Virus record (IMG/VR): IMGVR_UViG_3300037504_001427
Coordinates: 1-64,000 of that record
DNA from: a virus
Strand: one strand, 5' to 3'
DNA length: 64,000 nt
Both the position numbers and the translations under genes were made by a program. Below, in pieces: positions 5,023 through 61,759 of the stretch; position 1 is the stretch's first letter, and every line of letters begins with the position of its first letter. The notes under the pieces are model-generated. The model was given only the letters and a program-made list of their open reading frames with translations, was not told where the DNA came from and did no database searches.

Positions 5023-5346
5023 TCAGGTGCGGACGAAACCCTCACACCCGATGACCCTCCCCTGGTCGTCCCTGACCAGTCGGCCGGGAGACAAAAGGTC
5101 GCCGCGGTCCGGGCTCGCGGCCCGGACTAGGGCACTCACTATATAGTGAGTGCCCTCCTGGGGCTCGGGGAGGCCAGTGACCTCCCCGTACTCCTCGCGG
5201 TAGACGGGAAATCCGTCCACCGTGCCGACTTGCGTGGCTTCGGTAGCCACCCGAGCGATCCCCTCCGAGGGGGGGAGGGTCACCACTGCCCCGTTGGGGG
5301 CGTGGATTGTGACTGAGTGAGGGGTGAGGTTGACCAGATTGGCCAT
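5023..5346 (-). CDS. conserved viral hypothetical protein (NLTPH family)
   Basis: MANLVNLTPH...PPSEGIARV...IVSALV...DLLSP...VRDDQGRVIG; RBS gaaaggag. Confidence 0.75.
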   Translation of the reverse strand: MANLVNLTPHSVTIHAPNGAVVTLPPSEGIARVATEATQVGTVDGFPVYREEYGEVTGLPEPQEGTHYIVSALVRAASPDRGDLLSPGRLVRDDQGRVIGCEGFVRT

Positions 5347-12815: not shown

Positions 12816-13325
12816 ATGCCGATTCATCTCATCGTCGCCCAAGTAGCGGGCAATCGCCCAACATTCGCCACACGCTGCGGACTGCATGTGCACCCCAACG
12901 CCAACGTGCCTGCTCAGCAGGTAATTGGCAAGCCCACGCGGGTCGGCGTCGGAGACGAACCGTGCCCAGACTGCTTCCCTCCCAGCAATGCCGCAGACCA
13001 GCGGGCTGTCGCGCCTACCTATGACGAGAAGGGCCAGGCATGGGGCGCCGCCTACGAAGAGCCAATGACCGACAACGCCGGCAGGCGCATCGCAAAAACG
13101 GTGAATGATGTCGTGGTCAATAAAACGGAGATCGAGGAAGGCGGGATGGGCCAAGACTACATCGATGATCCCTACGGTGCCTCCTACGAACTCCAGCGGG
13201 CCGAGCGAGCAGGACAAGAGGCCGCACGTTCCGGCAAGACACGCGCTTCGTGTCCCATCGCGAAGGACTGTCCCGTGCGTCGTGCGTGGCTCATAGGCTT
13301 CGACAAGATGCAGCGGCTCCTCTGA
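12816..13325 (+). CDS. protein with N-terminal Cys motif and C-terminal Rmf/CrpP-like domain
   Basis: RAERAGQEAARSGKTRASCP...RRAWLIGF resembles ribosome modulation factor; RBS gaggag. Confidence 0.55.
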   Translation: MPIHLIVAQVAGNRPTFATRCGLHVHPNANVPAQQVIGKPTRVGVGDEPCPDCFPPSNAADQRAVAPTYDEKGQAWGAAYEEPMTDNAGRRIAKTVNDVVVNKTEIEEGGMGQDYIDDPYGASYELQRAERAGQEAARSGKTRASCPIAKDCPVRRAWLIGFDKMQRLL

Positions 13326-20847: not shown

Positions 20848-21214
20848 GCGCACGTCAGAATGGCGAAAATAACGCTCTTCCCGGTTACAGCCGAGAAGAG
20901 CGTTTGGTCCGGGGACCGAAGGGCCTCTAAGACCCGCTGGACAAAAGCAAGCCCACTTTCGTGGGTTCTTCTTCGGTGTCAAGTCCCATTCACGTTGGAA
21001 CGGATTAGAGTGAGTCGCTGCTGCCACTGACGTCCGTGTGCGCCAAGCGCACGTCAGAATGGCGAAAATAACGCTCTTCCCGGTTACAGCCGAGAAGAGC
21101 GTTTGGTCCGGGGACCGAAGGGCCTCTAAGACCCGCTGGACAAAAGCAAGCCCACTTTCGTGGGTTCTTCTTCGGTGTCAAGTCCCATTCACGTTGGAAC
21201 GGATTAGAGTGAGT
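20848..21214. repeat. 168-bp direct repeat (20848-21015 and 21047-21214)
   Basis: Copies identical by eye, period 199 bp; contains several hairpins. Confidence 0.9.
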
Positions 21215-23688: not shown

Positions 23689-24140
23689 ATGGAAAGCTCC
23701 TCGACGCGCTCGGCATCAACCTCGATGGGTTTCTCCTGTCCCGAGGAAGGAGGGCCGTCGTCGTCCTCGCCTCCATCATCGCCCTCGTCATCTCCGAACT
23801 CATCGAAGAACCCGATACACTGCACCACCACCATGTGGCCGGGAGTGAACACGGTGTCGACGACGGTCGATTCATCATCCTCGGAGAGTCCGGAAACGAT
23901 GGTGTCCAGCGACTCTTCCAGACGGGCATCCTGGGGATCCAACTGGACGACGTGCGGGCACAGCACCGGGAAGGCGGCCACTTGAGGGGCATCGTCCACC
24001 AGCGTGAGGGCCAATACGACCTTGTTGCCGACCTCATGGGCCCCGACACTGATGATATCGGCGGTATCGGCGAATCTCGCCACCCGCTTATTGAAGTCGG
24101 AGAGGCTTTCTCGCTTCGGATTGAATACCATGATGTTCAT
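23685..24140 (-). CDS. acidic hypothetical protein
   Basis: Translationally coupled ORF. Confidence 0.6.
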   Translation of the reverse strand: MNIMVFNPKRESLSDFNKRVARFADTADIISVGAHEVGNKVVLALTLVDDAPQVAAFPVLCPHVVQLDPQDARLEESLDTIVSGLSEDDESTVVDTVFTPGHMVVVQCIGFFDEFGDDEGDDGGEDDDGPPSSGQEKPIEVDAERVEELSI

Positions 24141-24832
24141 TGGCGCTGTTCCTTTCGGGCATCGAGTAGTGCCCGCTCATAGGCTGGGCCGAGTTTGCGG
24201 AACATCTGCTCCTCGGGAGAGAGGTTCTCTCCGTCGGCGGCAACGGCAAGCCCTTCAAGCTGCGGCTCTTCGGACTCCTCCGCAATGATGATATCAGGAC
24301 CATATTTCTCTTGTCGTGCCAATTGGCGCGATATGCGGACGAAGGACGTCTGCTCTGCCCACGAGAGATCCCGCAACTCATCGCCGTGCTCAGTATCCGG
24401 CGACGCAAGGAGTATGGCGCCGCAGGTGGTCTCAACACCATCCCTGCTGACGGTGTTCCGACACAGGATCGCCTCATTCGTGGCGCCATCGGGGAACACG
24501 GCAGGACGCACGGCTCGGTAGTCGGCCCGCGTCGCGGCCTCTTGATTACAGCGAGGACACTTCAGGCCGCACTCGGCAATATCGTGCCGGCTGACAAAGT
24601 AGGCATCGTGCTCGCAAGGCACAGCGCCCAAAGGATCGCACGGAAGATAGATCGGCCCTCCGGCTGCGGCAGGTAGATCCGCTGATTCAGCGCGCTGGCT
24701 TCGATGAGACTGAGGGGACAGGCCTCGGACTTCGGCCTCACTCTTCGCCTGCAGACCAAGCCTGCGCCTGCCATAGACGACCAGCGCGATAAACTGCAGG
24801 ATCACAACGATGAGAAGGATCAGTTCGGTCAT
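24137..24832 (-). CDS. N-terminal TM, Cys-cluster (Zn-ribbon-like) protein
   Basis: MTELILLIVV...; CPRC motif. Confidence 0.6.
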   Translation of the reverse strand: MTELILLIVVILQFIALVVYGRRRLGLQAKSEAEVRGLSPQSHRSQRAESADLPAAAGGPIYLPCDPLGAVPCEHDAYFVSRHDIAECGLKCPRCNQEAATRADYRAVRPAVFPDGATNEAILCRNTVSRDGVETTCGAILLASPDTEHGDELRDLSWAEQTSFVRISRQLARQEKYGPDIIIAEESEEPQLEGLAVAADGENLSPEEQMFRKLGPAYERALLDARKEQRQ

Positions 24833-25620: not shown

Positions 25621-26084
25621 TCATGCAGTGCTCCGAGGGTCCACCACCATGATCTTGTTGATCCGTTCCGCCAGATCGGGGTGAATGATGGCCACCACGA
25701 TCTCCTGGTCCTCGATGGCAACCTTGGTCGAAACCATAGGGGTCTGGGCCGTCTGCCTAGCCGTCTCATAGGCGTCCAGGAGCGGCCCCAGGTCAGTCAT
25801 CATACCGTGTGTCCTCGGAGCGGCATCATCACGCGCGCACTTCCGCAGAGACGCTAGGTCGAAACGGGATACGGAGACGCCTTCCACGAATCCGCACCCG
25901 GCGACCCAGACGGTGCAGCACTGGTCACTCGCCGGCTGGTCCATAATGCGGACCTCGCGTCCGATCAGCGGGGCCCAGAAGGAATTGGCTCGATTCTGCT
26001 CGGTATCGGCCACGGGCGCACGCAAGATTTCTTTCCCGTGTGCGAAGCCGCAGCCGTAGTCGTTGCCACCGCCTACTGGATATC

Positions 26085-26088
<4 letters not shown>
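25621..26088 (-). CDS. hypothetical protein starting with the array leader MRYPVG
   Basis: MRYPVGGGNDYGCGF followed by unique sequence. Confidence 0.6.
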
Positions 26089-26282
<194 letters not shown>

Positions 26283-27816
26283 CGCCCCTCCACTGTGCCG
26301 AACCCGAAGCCGAAGCCGTAGCCGTAGCCGGTGCCGTAGCCGTCGCCGAAGCCGTCGCCGAAACCGTCGCCGTAGTCGAAGCCGTCGCCGAAGCCGTGGC
26401 CTAAGCCGCGGCCGAAGCCGTGGCCGAAGCCGACGCCGTCGCCGTTGCCGTAGCCGTTGCCGTAGCCGTGGCCGAAGCCGGCGCCGTCGCCGTTGTCGTA
26501 ACCGTCGCCGAAGCCGTAACCGTCGCCGAAGCCGTCACCTACTGGATAGTTCATCGCCTGCTTCCTACTGTGCCGTAGCCGTAGCCGCGGCCGTTGCCGC
26601 AGCCGTTGCCGTAGCCCTCGCCGTCCCCGTAGCCGTAGCCGCAGCCGTCACCGTAGCCGTAGCCGAAACCGTCGCCGAAGCCGAGGCCGTTGCCGTTGCC
26701 GTTGCCGTCGCCAAAACCGTTGCCGAAACCGTCGCCGAAACCGTCGCCGAAGCCACCGTAACCGTCGCTGAAGCCGTGGCCGTAGCCGTAGCCGTAGCCG
26801 GTGCCGTTGCCTACTGGATATCTCATCGCCCCTCCACTGTGCCGTTGCCGTCGCCGAAGCCGTAGCCGTAGCCGGTGCCGCAGCCGGTGCCGAAGCCGTC
26901 GCCGAAACCGTCGCCGTAGTCGAAGCCGTCGCCGAAGCCGTGGCCGTCACCGTAGCCGTAGCCGAAGCCGAGGCCGTTGCCGCTGCCGTTGCCGCTGCCA
27001 AAACCGTTGCCGAAACCGTCGCCGAAACCGTCGCCGAAGCCACCGTAACCGTCGCCGAAGCCGTAACCGTCGTCGTAACCGTCACCTACTGGATATCTCA
27101 TCGCCCCTCCACTGTGCCGTTGCCGTCGCCGAAGCCGTCGCCGAAGCTGTAGCCGTAGCCGTCGCCGTTGCCGAAGCCGTTACCGAAGTCGTCGCCGAAG
27201 CCGTGGCTGAAGCCGTGGCCGAAGCCGGCGCCGTAGCCGTTGCCGTAACCGTCGCCGAAGCCGTAACCGTCGCCGAAGCCGTAACCGTCGCCGTAACCGT
27301 CACCTACTGGATATCTCATCGCCCCTCCACTGTGCCGCGCCCGTTGCCGTAGCCTTCGCCGTCCCCGTAGCCGTAGCCTTCGCCGTCCCCGTAGCCGTAG
27401 CCGCAGCCGGTGCCGTTGCCGTTGCCGTTGCCGTTGCCGTAGCCATTGCCGTAACCGGAGCCGGAGCCGTCGCCGAAGCCGTCGCCGAAGCCGTCGCCGA
27501 AGCCGTAGCCGTAGCCTACTGGATATCTCATCGCCCCTCCCCTTTGCCGTTGCCGTCGCCATAGCCATAGCCAGCGCCGTAGCCGTATCCGTAGCCGAAG
27601 CCGTAGCCGAAGCCGCCGCCGTAGCCGTCGCCGCCGACGAAACGATAGCCGTTGCCGTAGCCGTTACCGTAACCGTAGCCGGTGCCGCGGCCGTTGCCGT
27701 AGCCGAAGTTGTAACCGTCGCCGTTACCGGTGCCGTAGCCGCTGTCGTCGCCTACTGGATATTTCATCACCCCTCCACTGTGCCGTTGCCGCTGTCGTCG
27801 CCTACTGGATATTTCA

Positions 27817-28149
27817 TCACCCCTCCACTGTGCCGTTGCCGTTGCCGTAGCCAGCGTCGGTGCCGTAGCCGTCGCCGAAGCCGTAGCCGTAGCCGTTGCC
27901 GTAACCGGCGCCGTCGCCGTCGCCGTCGCCGTCGCCGTAGCCGAAGCCGCAGCCGAAGCCGAAGCCGTAGCCGTAGCCGTAGCCGTAGCCGCAGCCGTAA
28001 CCGGCGCCGTCGCCGTAGCCGTTGCCGTCGCCGAAGCCGTCGCCGAAGCTGTAGCCGTAGCCGTCGCCGTTGCCGAAGCCGTTACCGAAGCCGTCGCCGA
28101 AGCCGTGGCCGAAGCCGTCGCCGAACCCGCCACCTACTGGATATCTCAT
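27817..28149 (-). CDS. Gly-X repeat microprotein (longest unit, 110 aa)
   Basis: MRYPVGGGFG...GTVEG. Confidence 0.65.
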   Translation of the reverse strand: MRYPVGGGFGDGFGHGFGDGFGNGFGNGDGYGYSFGDGFGDGNGYGDGAGYGCGYGYGYGYGFGFGCGFGYGDGDGDGDGAGYGNGYGYGFGDGYGTDAGYGNGNGTVEG

Positions 28150-28840
28150 CGCCTGCTTACTGTGCCGTAGCCGCAGCCGAAGCCGGCGCCGTCGCCGTTG
28201 CCGTAACCGTCGCCGAAGCCGTCGCCGAAGCCGAAGCCGAAGCCGCCGTAGCCGAAGCCGGCGCCGTCGCCGTTGCCGTAACCGTCGCCGTGGCCGTGGC
28301 CGTGGACGAAGCCGTAGCCGTAGCCTACTGGATATTTCATCGCCCCTCCACTGTGCCGCGGCCGTTGCCATAGCCAGCGCCGGTGCCGTAGCCGTAGCCG
28401 AAGCCGAAGCCGTCGCCGAAGCCGAAGCCGTAGCCGAAGCCGTAGCCGAAGCCGTAGCCGAAGCCGGAACCGTCGCCGAAACCGTCGCCGAAGCCGGAGC
28501 CTTCGCCGTCGCCGAAGCCGTGGCCGAAGCCGTCGCCGAAGCCGTAGCCGAAGCCGCCACCTACTGGATATCTCATCGCCTGCTTACTGTGCCGTAGCCG
28601 CAGCCGTCGCCGCAGCCGTCGCCGTTGCCGTCGCCGCAGCCGGTGCCGCAGTCGTTGCCGTTGCCGTAGCCGTGGCCGTAGCCGAAGCCGTAGCCGAAGC
28701 CGTAACTGTCGCCACAGGCGTAGCCGTAGCCGTGGCCGTCGCCGAGGCCGCAGACATTGCCGAAGCCGTAGCCGTAGCCGAAGCCGCAGCCGTAGCCGTT
28801 GCCTCCACCTACTGGATATTTCATCGCCCGCGCTCCACTG

Positions 28841-29107
28841 TCATTCTTCCAGTGCCTGAAGCTCTCTCATCTCATGGATCAGCTTGGCTCGGGCTTCCGT
28901 GGCCTCTCTTACCGAGTGGAAATTGATCTTCTGCCAACCGTTGAGATCTGGCACGCCGCAATGTGTACACGGCACGCCCAGCATACGGAGACGAAAGAAC
29001 GCGCTGCCATAATCGCCGTCTCGGTATCCAGGCTTGGTGTTGACCACGCTGACCATGGAGACGTGATCCAGATTAACGGCCACATTGCCTACTTCGACAA
29101 CGTACAT
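28841..29107 (-). CDS. hypothetical cargo protein
   Basis: MYVVEVGNV start after gaaagga; CTHC motif. Confidence 0.55.
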   Translation of the reverse strand: MYVVEVGNVAVNLDHVSMVSVVNTKPGYRDGDYGSAFFRLRMLGVPCTHCGVPDLNGWQKINFHSVREATEARAKLIHEMRELQALEE

Positions 29108-29124
29108 GCACGACTTCCTTTCTA

Positions 29125-29197
29125 TGGCGGGGGAGGGACTCGAACCCTCGACCTTCGGATTATGAATCCGACGCGCTACCGCCTGCGCCACCCCGCA
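29125..29197 (-). tRNA. tRNA with CAT anticodon (Met, initiator-like)
   Basis: 73-nt cloverleaf: acceptor GCGGGG/CCCCGC, anticodon arm TCGGA-TTCATAA-TCCGA, T-loop GTTCGAG; no separate CCA after A73. Confidence 0.9.
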
Positions 29198-29198
29198 T

Positions 29199-29216
29199 TG
29201 TGTGTGTGTGTGTGTG
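29199..29216. repeat. (TG)9 microsatellite
   Basis: Read directly from sequence. Confidence 0.9.
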
Positions 29217-29229
29217 AATCTGATAATGC

Positions 29230-30255
29230 TCATCGCCTGCCTGCCACTGTGCCGAGCCCGTAGCCGTAGCCGTCGCCGTAGCCGAAGCCGCAGCCGTAGC
29301 CGTTGCCGTAGCCGTTGCCGTAGCCGTAGCCGGTGCCGTCGCCGTCGCCGTAGCCGTCGCCGCCACCGAAGCCGTAGCCATTGCCGCGGCTGTCGCCGTT
29401 GCCGTAGCCGTTGCCGTAGCCGTTGCCGTAGCCGAAGCCGAAGCCGCCGTCGCCTACTGGATATCTCATCGCCTGCCCGCCACTGTGCCGATCCCGTAGC
29501 CGTAGCCGTAGCCGTAGCCGAAGCCGCAGCCGTAGCCGTTGCCGTAGCCGTTGCCGTAGCCGTAGCCGGTGCCGTTGCCGTTGCCGTTGCCGTAGCCGTT
29601 GCCGAAACCGTAGCCGTTGCCGTAGCCGTTGCCGTAGCCGAAGCCGTAGCCGTTGCCGTAACCGAAGCCGAAGCCGCCGTCGCCTACTGGATATCTCATC
29701 GCCTGTCCGCCACTGTGCCGTAGCCGTAGCCGAAACCGAAACCGAAGCCGTTGCCGGTGCCGGTGCCGTAGCCGTCGCCGAAACCGTAGCCGTCGCCGAA
29801 ACCGTAGCAGTTGCCGTAGCCGTTGCCGTAGCCGTAGCCGCAGCCGTAGCCGAAGCCGTCGCCAAAGCTGTAGCCGTAGCCGTAGCCGTCGCCGTTGCCG
29901 TTGCCGTAGCCGTTGCCGTCGCCGTTGCCGGTGCCGTAGCCGTTGTCGCGGTCGTCGCCGAAGCCGTGGCCGAAGCCGTAGCCGCCGTCGCCTACTGGAT
30001 ATCTCATCGCCTGCCCGCTACTGTGCCGAGCCCGTAGCCGTAGCCGTCGCCGTAGCCGAAGCCGCAGCCGTAGCCGTTGCCGTAGCCGTTGCCGAAGCCG
30101 TCGCCAAAGCTGTAGCCGTAGCCGTAGCCGTAGCCGTCGCCGTTGCCGTAGCCGTCGCCGTCGCCAAAGCTGTAGCCGTAGCCGTTGTCGCGGTCGTCGC
30201 CGAAGCCGTGGCCGTAGCCGTAGCCGTAGCCGCCGTCGCCTACTGGATATCTCAT
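29230..30255 (-). repeat. Gly-X micro-gene array block B (4 units)
   Basis: ORFs 29230-29469, 29466-29699, 29696-30007, 30004-30255, ending GTVA(G/D)RR. Confidence 0.95.
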
Positions 30256-30810
30256 CGCCTGACGACGAACCCGGCGGTCCTCGGCGACGACACCGGCGGA
30301 CAAAACGTCTCGGAGGCACGTCCACTGCGGCCAGGTTGCTCGTCCCAAGTAACTGCTCAAGTAATCAGGCTGGCCGAGATAGCCATCCTCACCGCCGTCG
30401 TCAGGGAGGTCTCGGATCTTGTCCTCGATGGACAGGGTGCCGGTTGCGACGGGCTCGGCAAAGCCGTCCAAACAGGGCGCCAGGTCCGCCAAGATAGTAG
30501 CCGGAATCGGATTGTTCTCGAGATCCAGATCATCGGGATGCAAGGCAGGACCATCGTCAACAGCGACGTCTTTCTGCAAGATACCATCCAAGGCTCGGGC
30601 AAAGAGCGCTGGATGTTGAATGGAGCCATCAGCGTTCAGGTAAACGTCCGATAGAGCGGTCTGTCGTTTGTCCAGGTCATGAGCGGCAACTCGGAACTTG
30701 AGTATCCAGCGCGCTAGGCATATCCGCGTACTGGCAGAAAAAACATAGGGCTCACGCATCTGGCCCAGAGCTGCGAGCGTCCGTCGTACAGTATGTCCAC
30801 TTAGTTTCAT
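30004..30810 (-). CDS. hypothetical cargo protein reading in frame into a Gly-X unit
   Basis: MKLSGHTV... has no stop before the MRYPVG start at 30255. Confidence 0.5.
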   Translation of the reverse strand: MKLSGHTVRRTLAALGQMREPYVFSASTRICLARWILKFRVAAHDLDKRQTALSDVYLNADGSIQHPALFARALDGILQKDVAVDDGPALHPDDLDLENNPIPATILADLAPCLDGFAEPVATGTLSIEDKIRDLPDDGGEDGYLGQPDYLSSYLGRATWPQWTCLRDVLSAGVVAEDRRVRRQAMRYPVGDGGYGYGYGHGFGDDRDNGYGYSFGDGDGYGNGDGYGYGYGYSFGDGFGNGYGNGYGCGFGYGDGYGYGLGTVAGRR

Positions 30811-30890
30811 AAGGCCCAAGCTATTGGATCCGGCAATCGTGTCAAGCGTCGCGGTAGCCGAGGCCGTAGCCGTCGCTGAAGCCGTAGACG

Positions 30891-31982
30891 TCACCTACTG
30901 GATATCTCATCGCGGCCCTCCACTGTGTGGTAACCGACGCCGTCTGGGACATAAGGTATTCCAGCAATGTCGAGAGCATCTTTGTAGCCCCAATCAAATA
31001 TAGCGGCATGCCACATTTTCGGGTTGTCATGATAAAGAGACTGAAGCGGTGTGGGGCCGGGGCGCACATGGGAGCCGAACATGCAACAGACACAGCCAGA
31101 CGCCCCTCCTTTGGGCAGGATTGGGTAGATATTGTGTTGTTTTAGGTATCCGGCGATTTCGTCTTTAGTCCAAAAGCTCAGTGGATGGCAAAGCCACTCA
31201 CGGTGCGCAGTGGAGTAATAGAGTGCTCCGCGTTGGAGCCACATCATTTCGCGCGAACGCGATTCCTGTACGCGAACGCCTGTGAAATGGCCCAATATTC
31301 CTAGCTTCTTGTTTAAGCGGTGCATTGGCTTTTTCTTCAGTTCATCACAACAACGGCTTCCCGCTAAACCAATCCCGGCTTGGCGAAGCAGTTCAGCCGC
31401 CGCATGTAACTCCTGCGGAACGCGGAGTAAATGTGCGCGATTCCCAGTGGCCACATATTTGTCCACTTTTTGCCCTATGACCTTGGACCATAACGGAACG
31501 CCGACTTTTTGCCAAACCTCACGCGGACGAAGAGCCGGGTATGCGACGTGCAACGAAACGCCCCTCTCCCTCAGCCATTGCTTCCAATGTTTTATCTGCG
31601 CCTTGGTCTCTGGATATTCCAGGCGGGTATCGCTCGTGATGTGCGGGATCGCGAGCTTCAGTCGCTCGACCATAAGATGTGACAGCACGGTGCTGTCTTT
31701 CCCGCCGCTATAACTCAGCGCCCAGCAGTGCGGCAAGCGATTAAACGCCGAGTCAATTATTTTCTCGGAGAGCGCTAGCTTCTTTTCAAACGAGAGTTTC
31801 AAGCCCGCGTTGCGCATCTCCCCACGAACGGACAGCACATCACGCTGGTCCTGCGTCTTGTGCTTGCTTTGCCAGCCGCTCGGAAGATCCATCTCAATCC
31901 ACGCGCAATCGGCTGGATCACCGGCTTCATAGGCGGCTATCTGGTCAAGCGTTAGTCCGCGCCCGTCACCTGGATATCTCAT
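30891..31982 (-). CDS. PAPS reductase-family (PP-loop) protein
   Basis: SYSGGKDS, DTRLEYPET, CCDELKK.P, TGVRVQES..R, SGCVCC. Confidence 0.85.
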   Translation of the reverse strand: MRYPGDGRGLTLDQIAAYEAGDPADCAWIEMDLPSGWQSKHKTQDQRDVLSVRGEMRNAGLKLSFEKKLALSEKIIDSAFNRLPHCWALSYSGGKDSTVLSHLMVERLKLAIPHITSDTRLEYPETKAQIKHWKQWLRERGVSLHVAYPALRPREVWQKVGVPLWSKVIGQKVDKYVATGNRAHLLRVPQELHAAAELLRQAGIGLAGSRCCDELKKKPMHRLNKKLGILGHFTGVRVQESRSREMMWLQRGALYYSTAHREWLCHPLSFWTKDEIAGYLKQHNIYPILPKGGASGCVCCMFGSHVRPGPTPLQSLYHDNPKMWHAAIFDWGYKDALDIAGIPYVPDGVGYHTVEGRDEISSR

Positions 31983-35435: not shown

Positions 35436-38400
35436 CTATCTTCCCTCCACCGTGCTAATGCCGCCGCCGTGGCCGAAGCCAAAGCCGTGGCCGAAGCCGT
35501 AGCCGAAGCCGTGGCCGTCACCTACTGGATATCTCATCGCATCATCTCCAGGCCTCCACTGTGCCGTAGCCGTTGCCGTGGCCGTAGCCGTTGCCGTAGC
35601 CGTTGCCATAGCCGTCGCCGTAGCCGTAGCCGTAGCCGTTGCCGTAGCCGTCGCCGTAGCCGTAGCCGTCGCCGAAGCCGTCGCCGAAGCCGTAACCGTA
35701 ACCGTAGCCGTAGCCGTAGCCGTCGCCGAAGCCGTAGCCGTCGCCGAAGCCACCGCCGAAGCCGAAGCCGTAGCCGAAGCCGTGGCCGAAGCCGAAGCCG
35801 TCACCTACTGGATAGTTCATCGCCCACCTCCCACTGTGCCGAAGCCGTCACCTTCATCGCCCACCTCCCACTGTGCCGTAGCCATCGCCGTGGCCGTGGC
35901 CGTAGCCGTTGCCATGTCCTGCTGGATATCTCACCGCCTGCCGCCGGCCTCCTGATGTGGCTCAAAGAGGTAGACCTGCACCTCTGGTTCGCGCTCGAAG
36001 GCTGTCACGATCAGGGGTTTGACCTGCTGCCAGTTCAGCCCACCAAGGCCGCAGCCGAGTGGCGGAATGGCAATCGACTGAATCTGGAAGGTCTGCACGA
36101 CGGCAATCAGGTCATCCAGTCCGGTGGCGATGTCGTCCAGTTGGCTGCGCTGTCGCCAGTGGTCCTTGGTCGGGAAATTGATGATCAGCGGCGACTTGGC
36201 GCTGGTGTGCACGAACATCTTGCCCAGCTTGACCTGCCTCCGGTTGCAGGCGTCGCGGTAAGCAACGAAGTTGTCGGGCCAGGCATTCTTGAACTGGAGC
36301 GCCAGGCCCTTGCCCATCACGCCAACGGTGTTCACTGGGTTGACCAGCGCCTGAACCCGTGGTGCCCACGCCAAGATGTCGCCAGAGCAGGACTCGATCA
36401 CGGATACCTCATCGCCTGCCTGCCGCTGTGCCGAGCCCGTAGCCGTAGCCGTCGCCGGTGCCGTAGCCGGTGCCGTAGCCGGTGCCGTAGTCGGAGCCGG
36501 TGCCGGTGCTGTCGCCGTCGCCGTCGCCGTAGCCGTCGCCGAAGCCGTCGCCGAAGCCGTAGTCGGAGCCGTGGCCGTAGCCGTAGCCGTCGCCGAAGCC
36601 ACCGCCGAAGCCGAAGCCGTAGCCGAAGCCATAGCCGAAGCCGAAGCCGGCACCTACTGGGTATCTCATCGCCTGCCCGCCACTGTGCCGAGCCCGAAGC
36701 CGAAGCCGTATCCGTTGCCGAAGCCGTCGCCGTAGCCGTCGCCGCTGCTGTTGCCGTTGCCGTTGCCGTTGCCACCACCGAAGCCGTCGCCGTTGCCGAA
36801 GCCGTCGCCGAAGCCGTCGCCACTGCTGTTACCGCGACTGTCGCCGTTGCCGTTGCCGTTGCCGCAGCCGTAGCCGAAGCCGAAGCCGTCACCTACTGGA
36901 TATCTCATCGCATCATCTCCAGGCCTCCACTGTGCCGTGGCCGTGGCCGTAGCCGTTGCCGAAGCCGTCGCCGTCGCCGTAGCCGTCGCCGTTGCCGTTG
37001 CCGTAGCCGTCGCCGTCGCCGTAGCTGTCGCCGAAGCCGTATCCGTTGCCGAAGCCGTCGCCGTTGCCGTTGCCGTAGCCGTCGCCGTCGCCGTAGCCGT
37101 CGCCGTAGCTGTAGCCGTAGCTGTCGCCGTGGCCGTAACCGTAGCTGTCGCCGCTGCCGTCACCTACTGGATAGTTCATTGCCCACCTCCCATCCGTAGC
37201 CGTCACCTACTGGGTATCTCATCGCCTGCTCGCCGCTGTACCGAGCCCGAAGCCGAAGCCGTATCCGTTGCCGAAGCCGTCGCCGTAGCTGTCGCCGTAG
37301 CCGTTGCCGTTGCCGCGACTGTCGCCGTTGCCGTTATCGTTGCCGCAGCCGTAGCCGAAGCCGTAGCCGCCACCTACTGGATATCTCATCACCCACCTCC
37401 CACTGTGCCGTGGCCGTTGCCGTTGCCGTCGATGTCGCCGTAGCCGTTGCCGTAGCCGGCGCCGAAGCCGTAGCCGTAGCCGAAGCCGGCGCCGTCGCCG
37501 GAACCGTCGCCGAAACCGTCGCCGAAGCCGGAGCCTTCGCCGTCGCCGTCGCCGTCGCCGTAGCCGTAGCCGTCGCCGTAGCCGTCGCTGTCACCGAAGC
37601 CGTCGCCGAAGCCGAAGCCGCAGCCGTCACCTACTGGATATCTCATCGCATCATCTCCAGGCCTCCACTGTGCCGTGGCCGTAGCCGTTGCCGTTGCCGA
37701 AGCCGTAGCCGAAGCCGTAGCCGAAGCCGTGGCCGTAGTCGGAGCCGTAGCCGGTGCCGTAGCCGTAGCCGTAGTCGTCGCCGAAGCCGCCAAATCCGTC
37801 GCCGAAGCCGCCGCCGCCGTAACTGTCGCCGAAGTCGGAGCCGTCGCCGAAGCCGTAGCCGTCGCCGAAGCCACCGCCGAAGCCGAAGCCGTAGCCGAAG
37901 CCGTAGCCGAAACCGAAGCCGTCACCTACTGGATAGTTCATCGCCCACCTCCCACTGTGCCGTGACCGTTGCCGTTGCCGTCGATGTCGTCGTAGCCGTG
38001 GCCGAAGCCGAAGCCGTAACCGTAGCACGCCGGCAGGCGCATCGCAAAAACGGTGAATGATGCGTCGCCGAAGTCGTAGCCGAAGCCGCAGCCGTAGCCG
38101 AAGCCGTCGCCAAAGCTGTAGCCGTAGCCGTAGCCGTCGCCGAAGCCGAAGCCGCAGCCGTCACCTACTGGATATCTCACCACCTGCCCTCCACCGTGTC
38201 GTAGCCGCAGCCGTCGCCGTCGCCGAAGCCGCAGCCGTAACTGTCGCCGTAGCCGAAGCCGTGGCCGTTGCCGTCGCCGTTGCCACCACCTACTGGATAT
38301 CTCATCGCCCACTTCCAACTGTGCCGTGGCCGCGGCCGTTGCTGTTGCCGCAGCCGTAGCCATCGCCGTCGCCGTCGCCGTAGCCGTAGCCGTCGCCGTA

Positions 38401-38540
38401 GCCGTCGCTGTCACCGAAGCCGTAGCCGTAGCCGTAGCCGTCGCCGTAGCCATCGCCGTCACCGAAGCCGTCGCCGTAGCCGTCGCCGTCACCGAAGCCG
38501 TAGCCGAAGCCGCCACCTACTGGATATCTCATCGCCCACC
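35436..38540 (-). repeat. Gly-X micro-gene array block C (12 intact units plus degenerate ones, interrupted by the macrodomain gene)
   Basis: ORFs 35436-35537, 35542-35820, 35854-35934, 36409-36669, 36666-36908, 36913-37179, 37219-37389, 37389-37646, 37651-37941, 37938-38180, 38177-38305, 38302-38532. Confidence 0.95.
35931..36401 (-). CDS. Macrodomain ADP-ribosylhydrolase (DarG N-terminal/TARG1-like)
   Basis: GDIL...LVNPVNTVGVMGKGLALQFK...IINFPTKDHWR...IAIPPLGCGLGGL.W. Confidence 0.9.
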   Translation of the reverse strand: MIESCSGDILAWAPRVQALVNPVNTVGVMGKGLALQFKNAWPDNFVAYRDACNRRQVKLGKMFVHTSAKSPLIINFPTKDHWRQRSQLDDIATGLDDLIAVVQTFQIQSIAIPPLGCGLGGLNWQQVKPLIVTAFEREPEVQVYLFEPHQEAGGRR

Positions 38541-41968: not shown

Positions 41969-42844
41969 ATGCCAACGCCTATTTCTCATTCGCAAATAGA
42001 AGAGTTCAACCGATGCCAGCGCCGATGGGCGTACAGGAAGGTTCTTGGGCTTTCTCCAGATGGCGAAGACGAAACCGCCTTGCACTATGGCGACGCAGTT
42101 CACCTCGGCTTGGAGGACATCGGTCGTTCGTATCTCGAGGGCACGACGTCGACGCAGCCGCAAGCCGCACTCCTGAAGGTCCGCGAACGACTGGCGCAGC
42201 TTGGCGAACACTCATTGGTCGATCTCGCCGAGAGTCATCTCCAGGGCTTCGTACAGCACTTCCTGCCAGGGTTCCTCAGCGAGTGGCGGATCACCGCGGT
42301 GGAGCGGGAGGTCGAGCACGTCGTCGGAGAGATGCACTGGCGCGGCAAGATCGACCTGGAAGCCATCAATCAGCGCACCGGGGTGCATGCTGTCTTCGAC
42401 TACAAGACGTCCAGTGCGCAGTATGCCCGCGAGTTGACGCGCTCGATCACGTCTTCGCACCAGTTCGCCAATTACTGCATCAGCCACTGGCGCCGGAATG
42501 GGAGCTGGCCAGGCGCTGTCGGTTACATCTTCTTGGGGAAGCCCAGAACCAAGACGCCACAGAACATGTGCCGACCCGAGAATTTCTTCATGGAAGTGCG
42601 GGATGTGTCTCCGCAGATTGCTCAATTCGCCATCAGTGTGGAGCAGGCAGACAGGGCAGTGACGACTATTATGGCCCAGATCCGCTCTGGCGTCGGGTAC
42701 TATGGCGCCGGGTTCCTCGATCATGTGCCGGCTGACTTCGGCGCCTGTTCAAAGTTCGGTTCCACCTGCGGGTTCAGCGCTGGGTGCCATGCAGGAAATC
42801 CCTTGCATCAGCAGATCGCTGAGAGACAACGGCGCAGGACATGA
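41969..42844 (+). CDS. Cas4/AddB-like PD-(D/E)XK exonuclease
   Basis: SHS....RC.RRW, G.AVH, VE, GKID, DYKT, three C-terminal Cys. Confidence 0.85.
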   Translation: MPTPISHSQIEEFNRCQRRWAYRKVLGLSPDGEDETALHYGDAVHLGLEDIGRSYLEGTTSTQPQAALLKVRERLAQLGEHSLVDLAESHLQGFVQHFLPGFLSEWRITAVEREVEHVVGEMHWRGKIDLEAINQRTGVHAVFDYKTSSAQYARELTRSITSSHQFANYCISHWRRNGSWPGAVGYIFLGKPRTKTPQNMCRPENFFMEVRDVSPQIAQFAISVEQADRAVTTIMAQIRSGVGYYGAGFLDHVPADFGACSKFGSTCGFSAGCHAGNPLHQQIAERQRRRT

Positions 42845-58645: not shown

Positions 58646-59883
58646 TGTGGACCTCCGGCAGTCCGCTCAAAGCTGACCGTCCATGTTCCTGTGGCGGGCG
58701 GAGTCACCAGCAGGCGCAGGATCTGGTTTGCACCAGCACCCGAAACGTCGGCAGAGACGGTGAAGCCCTCGGCAACCAGGCTCGTGCCCGCGGCGCTTCC
58801 CGAGGCTGCTGTCGCGTCTGTGGACGGGTCACCATCGTGGATATACCGGGCATCGAATTCGGCGTAGGCACCGTTGGTGGTATCCTCGAGGTAGGCCTGC
58901 CAGCGAGCGCCCCGGAAGTCATCGACGGAGAAGGAGTCGATTACGTTGGCGACACTGTTGGTGAGCGCGATCTGGTTGCCGAACTGGTAGGCGGGGTCCC
59001 CGTCTGCGGCCACCCATGTGAGATAGAAGGTTGATCCCGAGCGGGTGATATAGGCCACGTCCACCGAGTCGGCATCCGGCGAAAGATCCGGCTGGATACC
59101 GCCGACATAGGCCCAGTTCGTGCCGCTGAAACTCAGCGTGTGACCACCACCCTGGGTGAACTCAATGCGGATGGTTGCGCCGTCTGGCATATTGGACGGT
59201 TCATTCAGGGTCACATTACCCGCGGTCGTCCGTCGGTAGACGGTGCCGAGTGTCGCCCCCAGCGTCTGGCCGTCCATATCGATGGATATGGTGTCACTAT
59301 CCAAGACCACTATCGTTGGATCCAGTGTGGTCGGACTCCACGCGGTGCTCGTGCCGTCGTAAATCAGCGCCTGCTGGTTTGTGGGGGCGGTGGCGCTGAC
59401 GTCTACGTTGCGGATCTTTTCGACAGTGTTTGCCCCCGCCGGGCCTGTGGCATCACCAGCAAGTGAGGCGCCAGCGCCCCCTCCACCATCGCCGACCCAG
59501 TTGCTCCGGCCTTCACTGAGTGAGGCATTGGTCACAGCGAGGGCAGCGTAAGTGCTGAGCTGGCGGCTCTGCAGTAGGTAGCCCGGCTGCAGGAGCGTCC
59601 AGAAGGCACCGGGAGCAGCGGTGATTGCCTCCTGGTAGAGGCCCTCGATGAGCACGCCCGTCCCGGAGTAGATCTCTATTTGATAGGGATTCGCGATAGA
59701 GGCCCCAGAATCATCGTAGAGCAGACTGACCGCGAATTCCAGCCCAGAGCGGGAGAGTCGGTCTCCAGGAACAAGCGTCAGCCCGAGGATCCGATGGCTG
59801 AGCAATGGCGCGAGGACACCGTTGACCGCGGTTTTCAGAGCAGAGAGGTTTGCTGCTGTGATGAGCTTTGTCGTCGTGGTCAT
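58642..59883 (-). CDS. spike/fibre protein 1
   Basis: T/S/G-rich beta repeats; N-terminal domain shared with 60212-61726. Confidence 0.65.
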   Translation of the reverse strand: MTTTTKLITAANLSALKTAVNGVLAPLLSHRILGLTLVPGDRLSRSGLEFAVSLLYDDSGASIANPYQIEIYSGTGVLIEGLYQEAITAAPGAFWTLLQPGYLLQSRQLSTYAALAVTNASLSEGRSNWVGDGGGGAGASLAGDATGPAGANTVEKIRNVDVSATAPTNQQALIYDGTSTAWSPTTLDPTIVVLDSDTISIDMDGQTLGATLGTVYRRTTAGNVTLNEPSNMPDGATIRIEFTQGGGHTLSFSGTNWAYVGGIQPDLSPDADSVDVAYITRSGSTFYLTWVAADGDPAYQFGNQIALTNSVANVIDSFSVDDFRGARWQAYLEDTTNGAYAEFDARYIHDGDPSTDATAASGSAAGTSLVAEGFTVSADVSGAGANQILRLLVTPPATGTWTVSFERTAGGPQ

Positions 59884-60211
59884 TTGCGCTGTTGCTCCAG
59901 CGCTTTCATGCGGCGCTCGAGGTCAGCCAAGCGCTCCTCAATGGATGCCGGCCCCTGCACCGACGGCTCTGGTCGATAGACGCGTTCCTTGCCGTATCCC
60001 TTCGGACCCGTCCGCGCACAGAGCATTTTGTCATGTTCAACAAGGACGATGTCTTGTTGCGTCGCTTTTGCGATCACTGTCTGTGCTGCTTCGTCGGAAG
60101 TCTTGCACAACGGCACCAGCGTGGCGCCGTCCTTGCGAGCGGTTTCGATTTGACTTGGTATGTCGCGCAGAAAGTTTCTGGCTCGGCGGAGGATCTTTTC
60201 AGTGCTCATCA

Positions 60212-60212: not shown

Positions 60213-61726
<1,514 letters not shown>

Positions 61727-61759
61727 CTGCTCTCATTGTCCTTTTTTCAGAGGTTCGTG

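Follow-up and report, generated by a model that had tools for sequence, protein, structure and literature searches.

An exact 36-bp copy of a distant gene within a chain of glycine-rich viral micro-genes, probably acquired without homology

We analyzed a 64,000-nucleotide stretch of viral DNA (the window), which comprises bases 1 to 64000 of the 87,639-bp IMG/VR record IMGVR_UViG_3300037504_001427. Within it, a 36-bp segment at 38027-38062 is identical to a segment at 13075-13110 and lies in frame inside one of a chain of small, glycine-rich protein-coding genes (micro-genes, collectively the array). We conclude that this insert is probably a one-off, homology-independent ectopic copy that arose during break repair or replication and was kept because it is in-frame. 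Its only unusual features are the absence of microhomology at its edges, a second event of the same kind elsewhere in the genome, and a motif common to the ends of both copied patches. The record carries a 96-bp terminal repeat and is possibly incomplete (CheckV, 59%), though terminal repeats are present.

The 36-bp copy and its two locations

The 36-mer (ACGCCGGCAGGCGCATCGCAAAAACGGTGAATGATG) reads on the + strand at both sites with 36/36 identity, and exact matching confirmed the copy first reported by an earlier, sequence-only reading of this DNA. K-mer self-comparison found exactly two copies in the window and in the whole 87,639-bp genome. No further copies with ≤3 mismatches were detected in the window, and 100 shuffles gave 0 matches. 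In the whole-genome self-comparison, this was the sole exact repeat joining a glycine-rich array to unique sequence. The neighboring bases differ between the two sites on each side (0 nt of microhomology), target duplication is absent at 38027-38062, and the placement of the insert is unambiguous. The full 36-mer had no match in other IMG/VR contigs, and its core matched none of 185,579 prokaryotic (GTDB) genomes, either as a spacer or as host sequence.

The array is a minus-strand chain of small, translationally coupled genes in units of 63 to 333 bp. Each unit opens with ATG/GTG-AGA/AAC-TAT-CCA-GTA-GG (M-R/N-Y-P-V-G; the typical head is MRYPVG), runs on through a Gly-X tract in which Tyr, Phe, Asp, and Asn are abundant, and closes with ...G-T-V-E/A-G-R(R) (GTVEGR), the codons of this tail holding a GGAGG ribosome-binding site. 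Stops overlap the following start (ATGA or GTGA). The recipient micro-gene (37938-38180, minus strand; 80 amino acids) has a GTG start overlapping the upstream TGA and is the third unit of its cluster from the 38.5-kb end. The insert starts 118 nt inside this gene, in the variable Gly-X tract, which is repetitive, GC-rich, and (GCCGTA)n-like. It adds 12 codons to the minus-strand gene running from 38180 to 37938, keeps the frame, and introduces no stop. Read on the minus strand, the inserted copy gives ASFTVFAMRLPA plus partial codons, so that ...GYDFGD-G-YGYG... becomes ...GYDFGD-ASFTVFAMRLPA-CYGYG...; excision gives back ...FGDGYGYG.... The 12 added residues are mildly hydrophobic (mean Kyte-Doolittle value, +1.2). 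Edge and frame analyses thus upheld the description of the insertion as clean, in-frame, free of target duplication, and removable to leave a normal unit. When random genomic 36-mers were placed at the insert site, ∼80% also left the frame open; the clean in-frame state therefore needs only a 1-in-3 chance of length together with purifying selection.

The other copy occupies codons 87 to 99 (NAGRRIAKTVNDV) of a 169-amino-acid gene at 12816-13325 (plus strand). The C-terminal domain of this protein (amino acids 126 to 166) has an Rmf/CrpP fold and is ribosome modulation factor-like (Pfam PF04957, 29.1 bits; NCBIfam NF041886, 36.6 bits against a cutoff of 28); the 36-mer falls outside it. The 36-mer lacks the Gly-X hexamer periodicity of the array, and its excision yields a normal array unit, which identifies the array as the recipient. 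For the same reasons, movement from the array to the gene was rejected. The array would thus be the recipient and 12816-13325 the donor, an assignment that rests on parsimony, as the donor protein is without homologues: searches returned only the protein itself in a 5.8-billion-protein database and one 13-residue match in IMG/VR. The putative donor gene sits in a plus-strand block of unknown-function genes.

Two classes of element were considered as the source of the copy and rejected. A miniature mobile element (MITE- or REP-like) does not match a sequence with only two copies, no target duplication, and no occurrence in IMG/VR or the GTDB genomes. A diversity-generating retroelement does not match a genome in which reverse transcriptase (RVT_1) was searched for and had no match, nor two copies that are 100% identical.

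One public sequencing run, a tidal-flat metagenome from 2020, holds the region (93% of sampled words found). In its Logan contigs (k = 31), the left edge of the insert is carried by a contig that spans 37933-38056 at a depth of 55.7 and consists of 94 nt of array and 30 nt of insert. A second contig, which spans 38033-38113 at a depth of 53.6, carries the right edge, with 30 nt of insert and 51 nt of array. Other pieces of the array have depths of 50 to 80×, and the unique flank has a depth of 74×. The contigs end within the insert because the 36-mer exceeds the k of 31 and is common to the donor, whose continuation is left dangling at 38062. No contig in the run joins 38026 to 38063, as an empty site would, although a minority empty allele could escape the contigs. 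Given their abundance in the library, the two junctions cannot be a rare chimera. The check proposed in the sequence-only reading, a search for both insertion edges in read data, was thereby answered at the level of contigs, at ∼55× with no empty-site joint. This run may be the source sample; it therefore excludes a rare chimera without providing independent replication.

A second patch and a motif shared by the patch ends

Self-comparison of the genome revealed a second exact copy, 70 bp long, at 24663-24732 and at 65078-65147 of the record, in direct orientation and with unrelated flanks. The copy at 65 kb lies inside a 534-amino-acid glycosyltransferase, in which the GT1 domain match (residues 360 to 461) overlaps the patch (residues ∼445 to 468), and it reads ...KSEACPLSLIEASALNQRIYLPQ... 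in the native frame. The copy at 24663-24732 (plus strand) lies inside a 231-amino-acid gene (24137-24832, minus strand) downstream of a VRR-NUC-like gene, where it follows the N-terminal hydrophobic helix and is read in a different frame. Because the patch is native to the GT1 domain and out of that frame in the 231-amino-acid gene, we consider the glycosyltransferase gene to be the donor. Like the 36-bp insert, the patch has no microhomology and no target duplication. It is not part of an array, runs in the same sense as its donor, and has a length that is not a multiple of three, which argues that the underlying process is not array-specific, antisense-directed, or codon-aware. Apart from the two exact patches, sensitive self-BLAST detected none that were older and diverged. 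The sequence-only reading had found no other insert of this kind and had suggested self-comparison to look for others; this holds within the arrays, where no other insert was found, and fails for the genome as a whole.

The four junction comparisons of the two events each showed 0 nt of microhomology, and homeology between the 15-nt flanks and the insert ends did not exceed that obtained with random donors (of 12 P values, the lowest was 0.045 and all others were ≥0.19). The two patches share a motif near one end. CGGCAGG occupies positions 5 to 11 of the 36-bp patch (38031-38037, plus strand) and recurs at an identical offset within the 70-bp patch (24667-24673), as it does in the donors (13079-13085 and genome 65082-65088), and ATC follows at positions 15 to 17 from the left end of both patches. 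Genome-wide, the extended pattern C..CGGCAGG...ATC is confined to these four sites. In random segment pairs, a same-offset run of at least 7 bases arose in 0.2% of left-left comparisons and in 0.9% when four anchored comparisons were allowed (P = 0.002 and 0.009). The opposite ends of the patches differ, at 36 and 70 nt, and CGGCAGG occurs 29 times in the genome, the other occurrences being without patches. We know of no Chi sequence that reads CGGCAGG or CCTGCCG.

Two readings of the geometry may be drawn. On the minus strand, both fragments stop 4 nt past CCTGCCG, which resembles the distance at which RecBCD cuts, 4 to 6 nt 3′ of Chi (PMC5041463). On the plus strand, the fragments would have a common, defined 5′ end, as would primase-initiated flaps. 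We treat the shared end motif as a lead, not a finding, as it rests on two events and a post hoc test. If upheld in a larger survey, it would point to the fragment-making enzyme.

Comparison with CRISPR spacer acquisition

The sequence-only reading had likened the insert to spacer acquisition in clustered regularly interspaced short palindromic repeat (CRISPR) arrays and had pointed to a nearby Cas4-like nuclease gene and to the lack of Cas1. Both observations stood. The gene at 41969-42844 (plus strand), 3.9 kb from the insert, encodes a predicted PD-(D/E)XK exonuclease (Pfam PF12705, E = 3.4e-21) that has four cysteines, one N-terminal (C16) and three C-terminal (C260, C267, and C273), and a search of the 87.6-kb genome, which may be incomplete, for Cas1 (PF01867) gave nothing at E ≤ 0.1, with positive controls. 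Based on its sequence features, “Cas4-like” is a fair description of the nuclease. Its best PHROG matches are phage exonuclease families, and a family labeled “CRISPR/Cas associated” was matched only at E = 4e-4. The gene lies between a primase-helicase and a methyltransferase, upstream of a family A polymerase (PolA) and an SNF2 helicase, and these neighbors indicate that the nuclease is, as judged from gene order, part of a replication/recombination module.

The array lacks every defining feature of a repeat-spacer array. Instead of direct repeats of ∼21 to 48 bp alternating with spacers of similar size, its units are coding genes with conserved stop, ribosome-binding site, and start junctions. 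The insert lies within a variable tract and not at a repeat boundary with duplication of the repeat, and in place of many different inserts, 1 of 39 units carries one. An Rfam scan detected no CRISPR RNA family and only a single tRNA-Met. CRISPR spacer acquisition, in which Cas1-Cas2 inserts fragments that may be trimmed by Cas4 or derived from RecBCD activity, is thus resembled in the ∼36-bp size of the fragment, its location in a repetitive locus near the end closest to the promoter, and the Cas4-like gene. It differs in that the viral genome has no Cas1, no repeat-spacer units, no repeat duplication, an insert inside a coding tract, one insert in 39 units, and a second patch outside the arrays. 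The analogy drawn in the sequence-only reading is accordingly not supported.

The gene map did bear out the position of the insert in the third unit and its orientation: RNA from the minus-strand array would be antisense to the plus-strand donor mRNA and would pair with it perfectly over 36 nt. RNA folding around the insert was unexceptional (z = 0.35).

Probable origin of the insert

In the scenario that we favor, a break or a stalled fork would have occurred in the (GCCGTA)n-like tract of one micro-gene, and the gap would have been closed, without use of homology, by a 36-nt copy taken from a site at a distance of 25 kb, either in the same viral genome or in a sibling. The likeliest route may be end joining that captured a short fragment of self-DNA, or a short synthesis-dependent copy followed by ligation of the ends. 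The variant would have survived since 36 nt keeps the frame and thereby the translational coupling of about ten downstream genes; out-of-frame inserts would break this coupling and be lost. The insert itself is presumably neutral or nearly so. We regard the antisense match and the 12-residue hydrophobic stretch as by-products, with no sign of selection in the data examined.

Because the junctions lack microhomology, homology-independent capture or copying at a break fits better than a microhomology-primed switch. The junctions have the features of end joining: homology is minimal or absent, the target is not duplicated, and the donor stays intact. Capture of DNA fragments into genomic breaks by bacterial nonhomologous end joining (NHEJ) has been shown experimentally in Sinorhizobium (PMC6379672). 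At eukaryotic breaks in yeast and human cells, many distant templated insertions are without microhomology at either end; break-induced replication mediated by microhomology (MMBIR), hybrid synthesis-plus-NHEJ, and capture of extrachromosomal fragments are recognized routes to templated insertions (PMC11724301). The viral insert resembles such break-fragment capture (PMC11724301; PMC6379672) in being an exact distant copy of tens of base pairs at a single site, with 0 nt of microhomology, no target duplication, and an intact donor. It differs in that both events are fixed variants in a wild phage genome and were not recovered from induced-break assays, that the virus is without Ku and ATP-dependent ligase, and that the two events have a common end-anchored motif.

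Several points weigh against this explanation. Neither Ku nor an ATP-dependent ligase was found in the viral genome, so end joining would need host or unrecognized enzymes. No relatives were found, which places the age, polarity, and neutrality of the insert beyond comparison. The presence of two patches with an end-anchored motif in one 88-kb genome hints at something more regular than random accidents, a perfect 36/36 match would also be consistent with selected pairing, and the reads in question are probably those of the source sample.

The sequence-only reading had offered a template switch as the simpler alternative to spacer capture. It is indeed closer to the data than spacer capture, but none of the junctions shows microhomology. 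In MMBIR or fork stalling and template switching (FoSTeS), templated insertions have microhomology at the switch points (PMC8421209), and here the nascent strand would have come off the repeat tract, paired over a few bases at 13.07 kb, copied 36 nt, and returned. The perfect copy from the same genome in the same orientation would be explained, the repetitive, GC-rich recipient tract likely stalls polymerases, the virus encodes a family A polymerase and a primase-helicase, and templated insertions of the MMBIR type are well documented (PMC8421209). The insert therefore shares with MMBIR/FoSTeS a template elsewhere in the genome and a stall-prone recipient, but the defining microhomology is absent at every junction of both events, flank homeology is at chance level, and the template lies 25 kb (or, for the second patch, 40 kb) away and is not local. 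We consider this route rather unlikely. Also doubtful is a regular, motif-anchored process, prespacer-like in spirit and without a CRISPR array, that makes short pieces of self-DNA for insertion elsewhere, whether by a Chi-like nuclease stop that leaves a 3′ end 4 nt past CCTGCCG or through primase-defined 5′ flaps. CGGCAGG at positions 5 to 11 from the same end of both patches, the restriction of the extended motif to four sites, the match of the minus-strand geometry to the RecBCD cut 4 to 6 nt 3′ of Chi (PMC5041463), and the encoded four-cysteine PD-(D/E)XK exonuclease all favor such a process. Yet the pattern was tested post hoc on two events, the 29 CGGCAGG sites genome-wide include no other patches, and the search for Cas1 (PF01867) found no integrase-like partner. 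We give a correspondingly small chance to a Cas1-independent capture route in which the virus or its host cuts or primes 4 nt from CGGCAGG/CCTGCCG and the fragments are inserted homology-free. If it existed, such a route could remodel genes and perhaps seed antisense pairing of early and late transcripts.

A selected function seems improbable, either as a 36-nt antisense regulator of the mRNA of the Rmf-like gene or as a new peptide role conferred by the 12 hydrophobic residues. The complementarity of minus-strand array RNA to the plus-strand donor mRNA is perfect, and the insert is in-frame, mildly hydrophobic, and at or near fixation in the sampled population; however, the second patch has the sense orientation of its donor and cannot be antisense, the RNA around the insert folds unremarkably, most random 36-mers would be no less well tolerated, and conservation could not be invoked as no relatives were found. 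An assembly or library chimera is very unlikely. Although this is a metagenome assembly with a highly repetitive recipient and a single run holding the sequence, the independent k = 31 assembly contains both junctions at depths near those of the array and flank and includes no empty-site contig, and a 36-bp insert with correct flanks is atypical of a de Bruijn artifact. Least credible of all is CRISPR-like spacer acquisition yielding a guide RNA: the spacer-like length, the promoter-proximal third unit, and the nearby Cas4-like nuclease would suit it, but these are outweighed by the coding units, the insertion into a variable tract with no repeat duplicated in only 1 of 39 units, the absence of Cas1 and of any Rfam CRISPR family, and the lack of a matching spacer or other occurrence of the 36-mer core in the 185,579 prokaryotic genomes.

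Under homology-independent copying, the event taken singly has little weight, being a repair scar that lengthens one of 39 redundant peptides by 12 residues. Its value is as a natural, fixed, homology-free ectopic insertion in a phage, a phenomenon known mainly from eukaryotic induced-break assays and one bacterial NHEJ study. The two patches suggest that small in-frame novelties in viral genes arise recurrently by short ectopic copying, a source that has been under-described.

The micro-gene family and its relatives

The genome encodes 39 micro-genes, grouped at 25.6 to 30.9 kb and 35.4 to 38.5 kb and, past the window, at 72.8 to 75.0 and 78.4 to 80.2 kb. The two clusters within the window span 25621-30910 and 35436-38532 (minus strand); the latter hosts the insert and encloses a macro-domain gene (35931-36410). 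Taken together, the clusters enclose or adjoin the macro-domain gene and a queC/folE2/dpdA-like/PAPS-reductase set. The insert is the only non-glycine-rich stretch beyond a few residues among the 38 short members of the family. A sigma-70 promoter scan of 35.3 to 39.3 kb found nothing, and terminator-like sites occurred there at chance level. The last gene of the first cluster (25621-26088, minus strand) opens with an MRYPVGGG head and goes on as a 155-amino-acid nonrepetitive protein without a Pfam, NCBIfam, or PHROG match. A tRNA-Met (CAT) gene (29125-29197, minus strand) lies between micro-gene units of the same cluster.

The micro-gene units matched no family in Pfam, NCBIfam, or PHROG and are predicted to be disordered (Atlas predicted local distance difference test [pLDDT] score, 0.40). 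Homologous arrays were not found in IMG/VR, JGI metagenomes, or GTDB genomes. The junction motif and a degenerate MRYPVG-head pattern had no match in IMG/VR, and in JGI metagenome contigs and GTDB genomes the head pattern gave only chance matches to unrelated proteins. Searches with an array unit gave no match at E ≤ 0.001, for which composition filtering is the probable cause. The primase of the virus had no close relative either, the best match being 26 to 28% identical. The ESM Atlas contains viral clusters of like composition, without names, which we note as a lead only.

Among cultured phages, blastn identified single Gly/Tyr/Asp-rich genes annotated as “lamprin” or “fibroin-like” and no chained arrays. 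Both MW202748.1 (2492-2806 of the stretch examined) and Ralstonia phage NK-7 (1511-1924 of the stretch examined) carry a single early-region, low-complexity gene rich in Gly, Tyr, Asp, and Asn. These occurrences suggest that Gly/Tyr/Asp/Asn-rich phage proteins form a wider, uncharacterized class.

Other features of the genome

Three further sequence features were recorded in the window. A perfect 168-bp tandem duplication (20848-21015 and 21047-21214, separated by a 31-bp spacer) occupies the gap between converging gene blocks. Two paralogous gene segments (59474-59890 and 61317-61733), 1.8 kb apart, share 84% identity across 417 bp. A perfect 28-bp palindrome, AGGGCACTCACTATATAGTGAGTGCCCT, lies at 5129-5156, and its half-site has what we take to be a likeness to the core of T7-type phage promoters.

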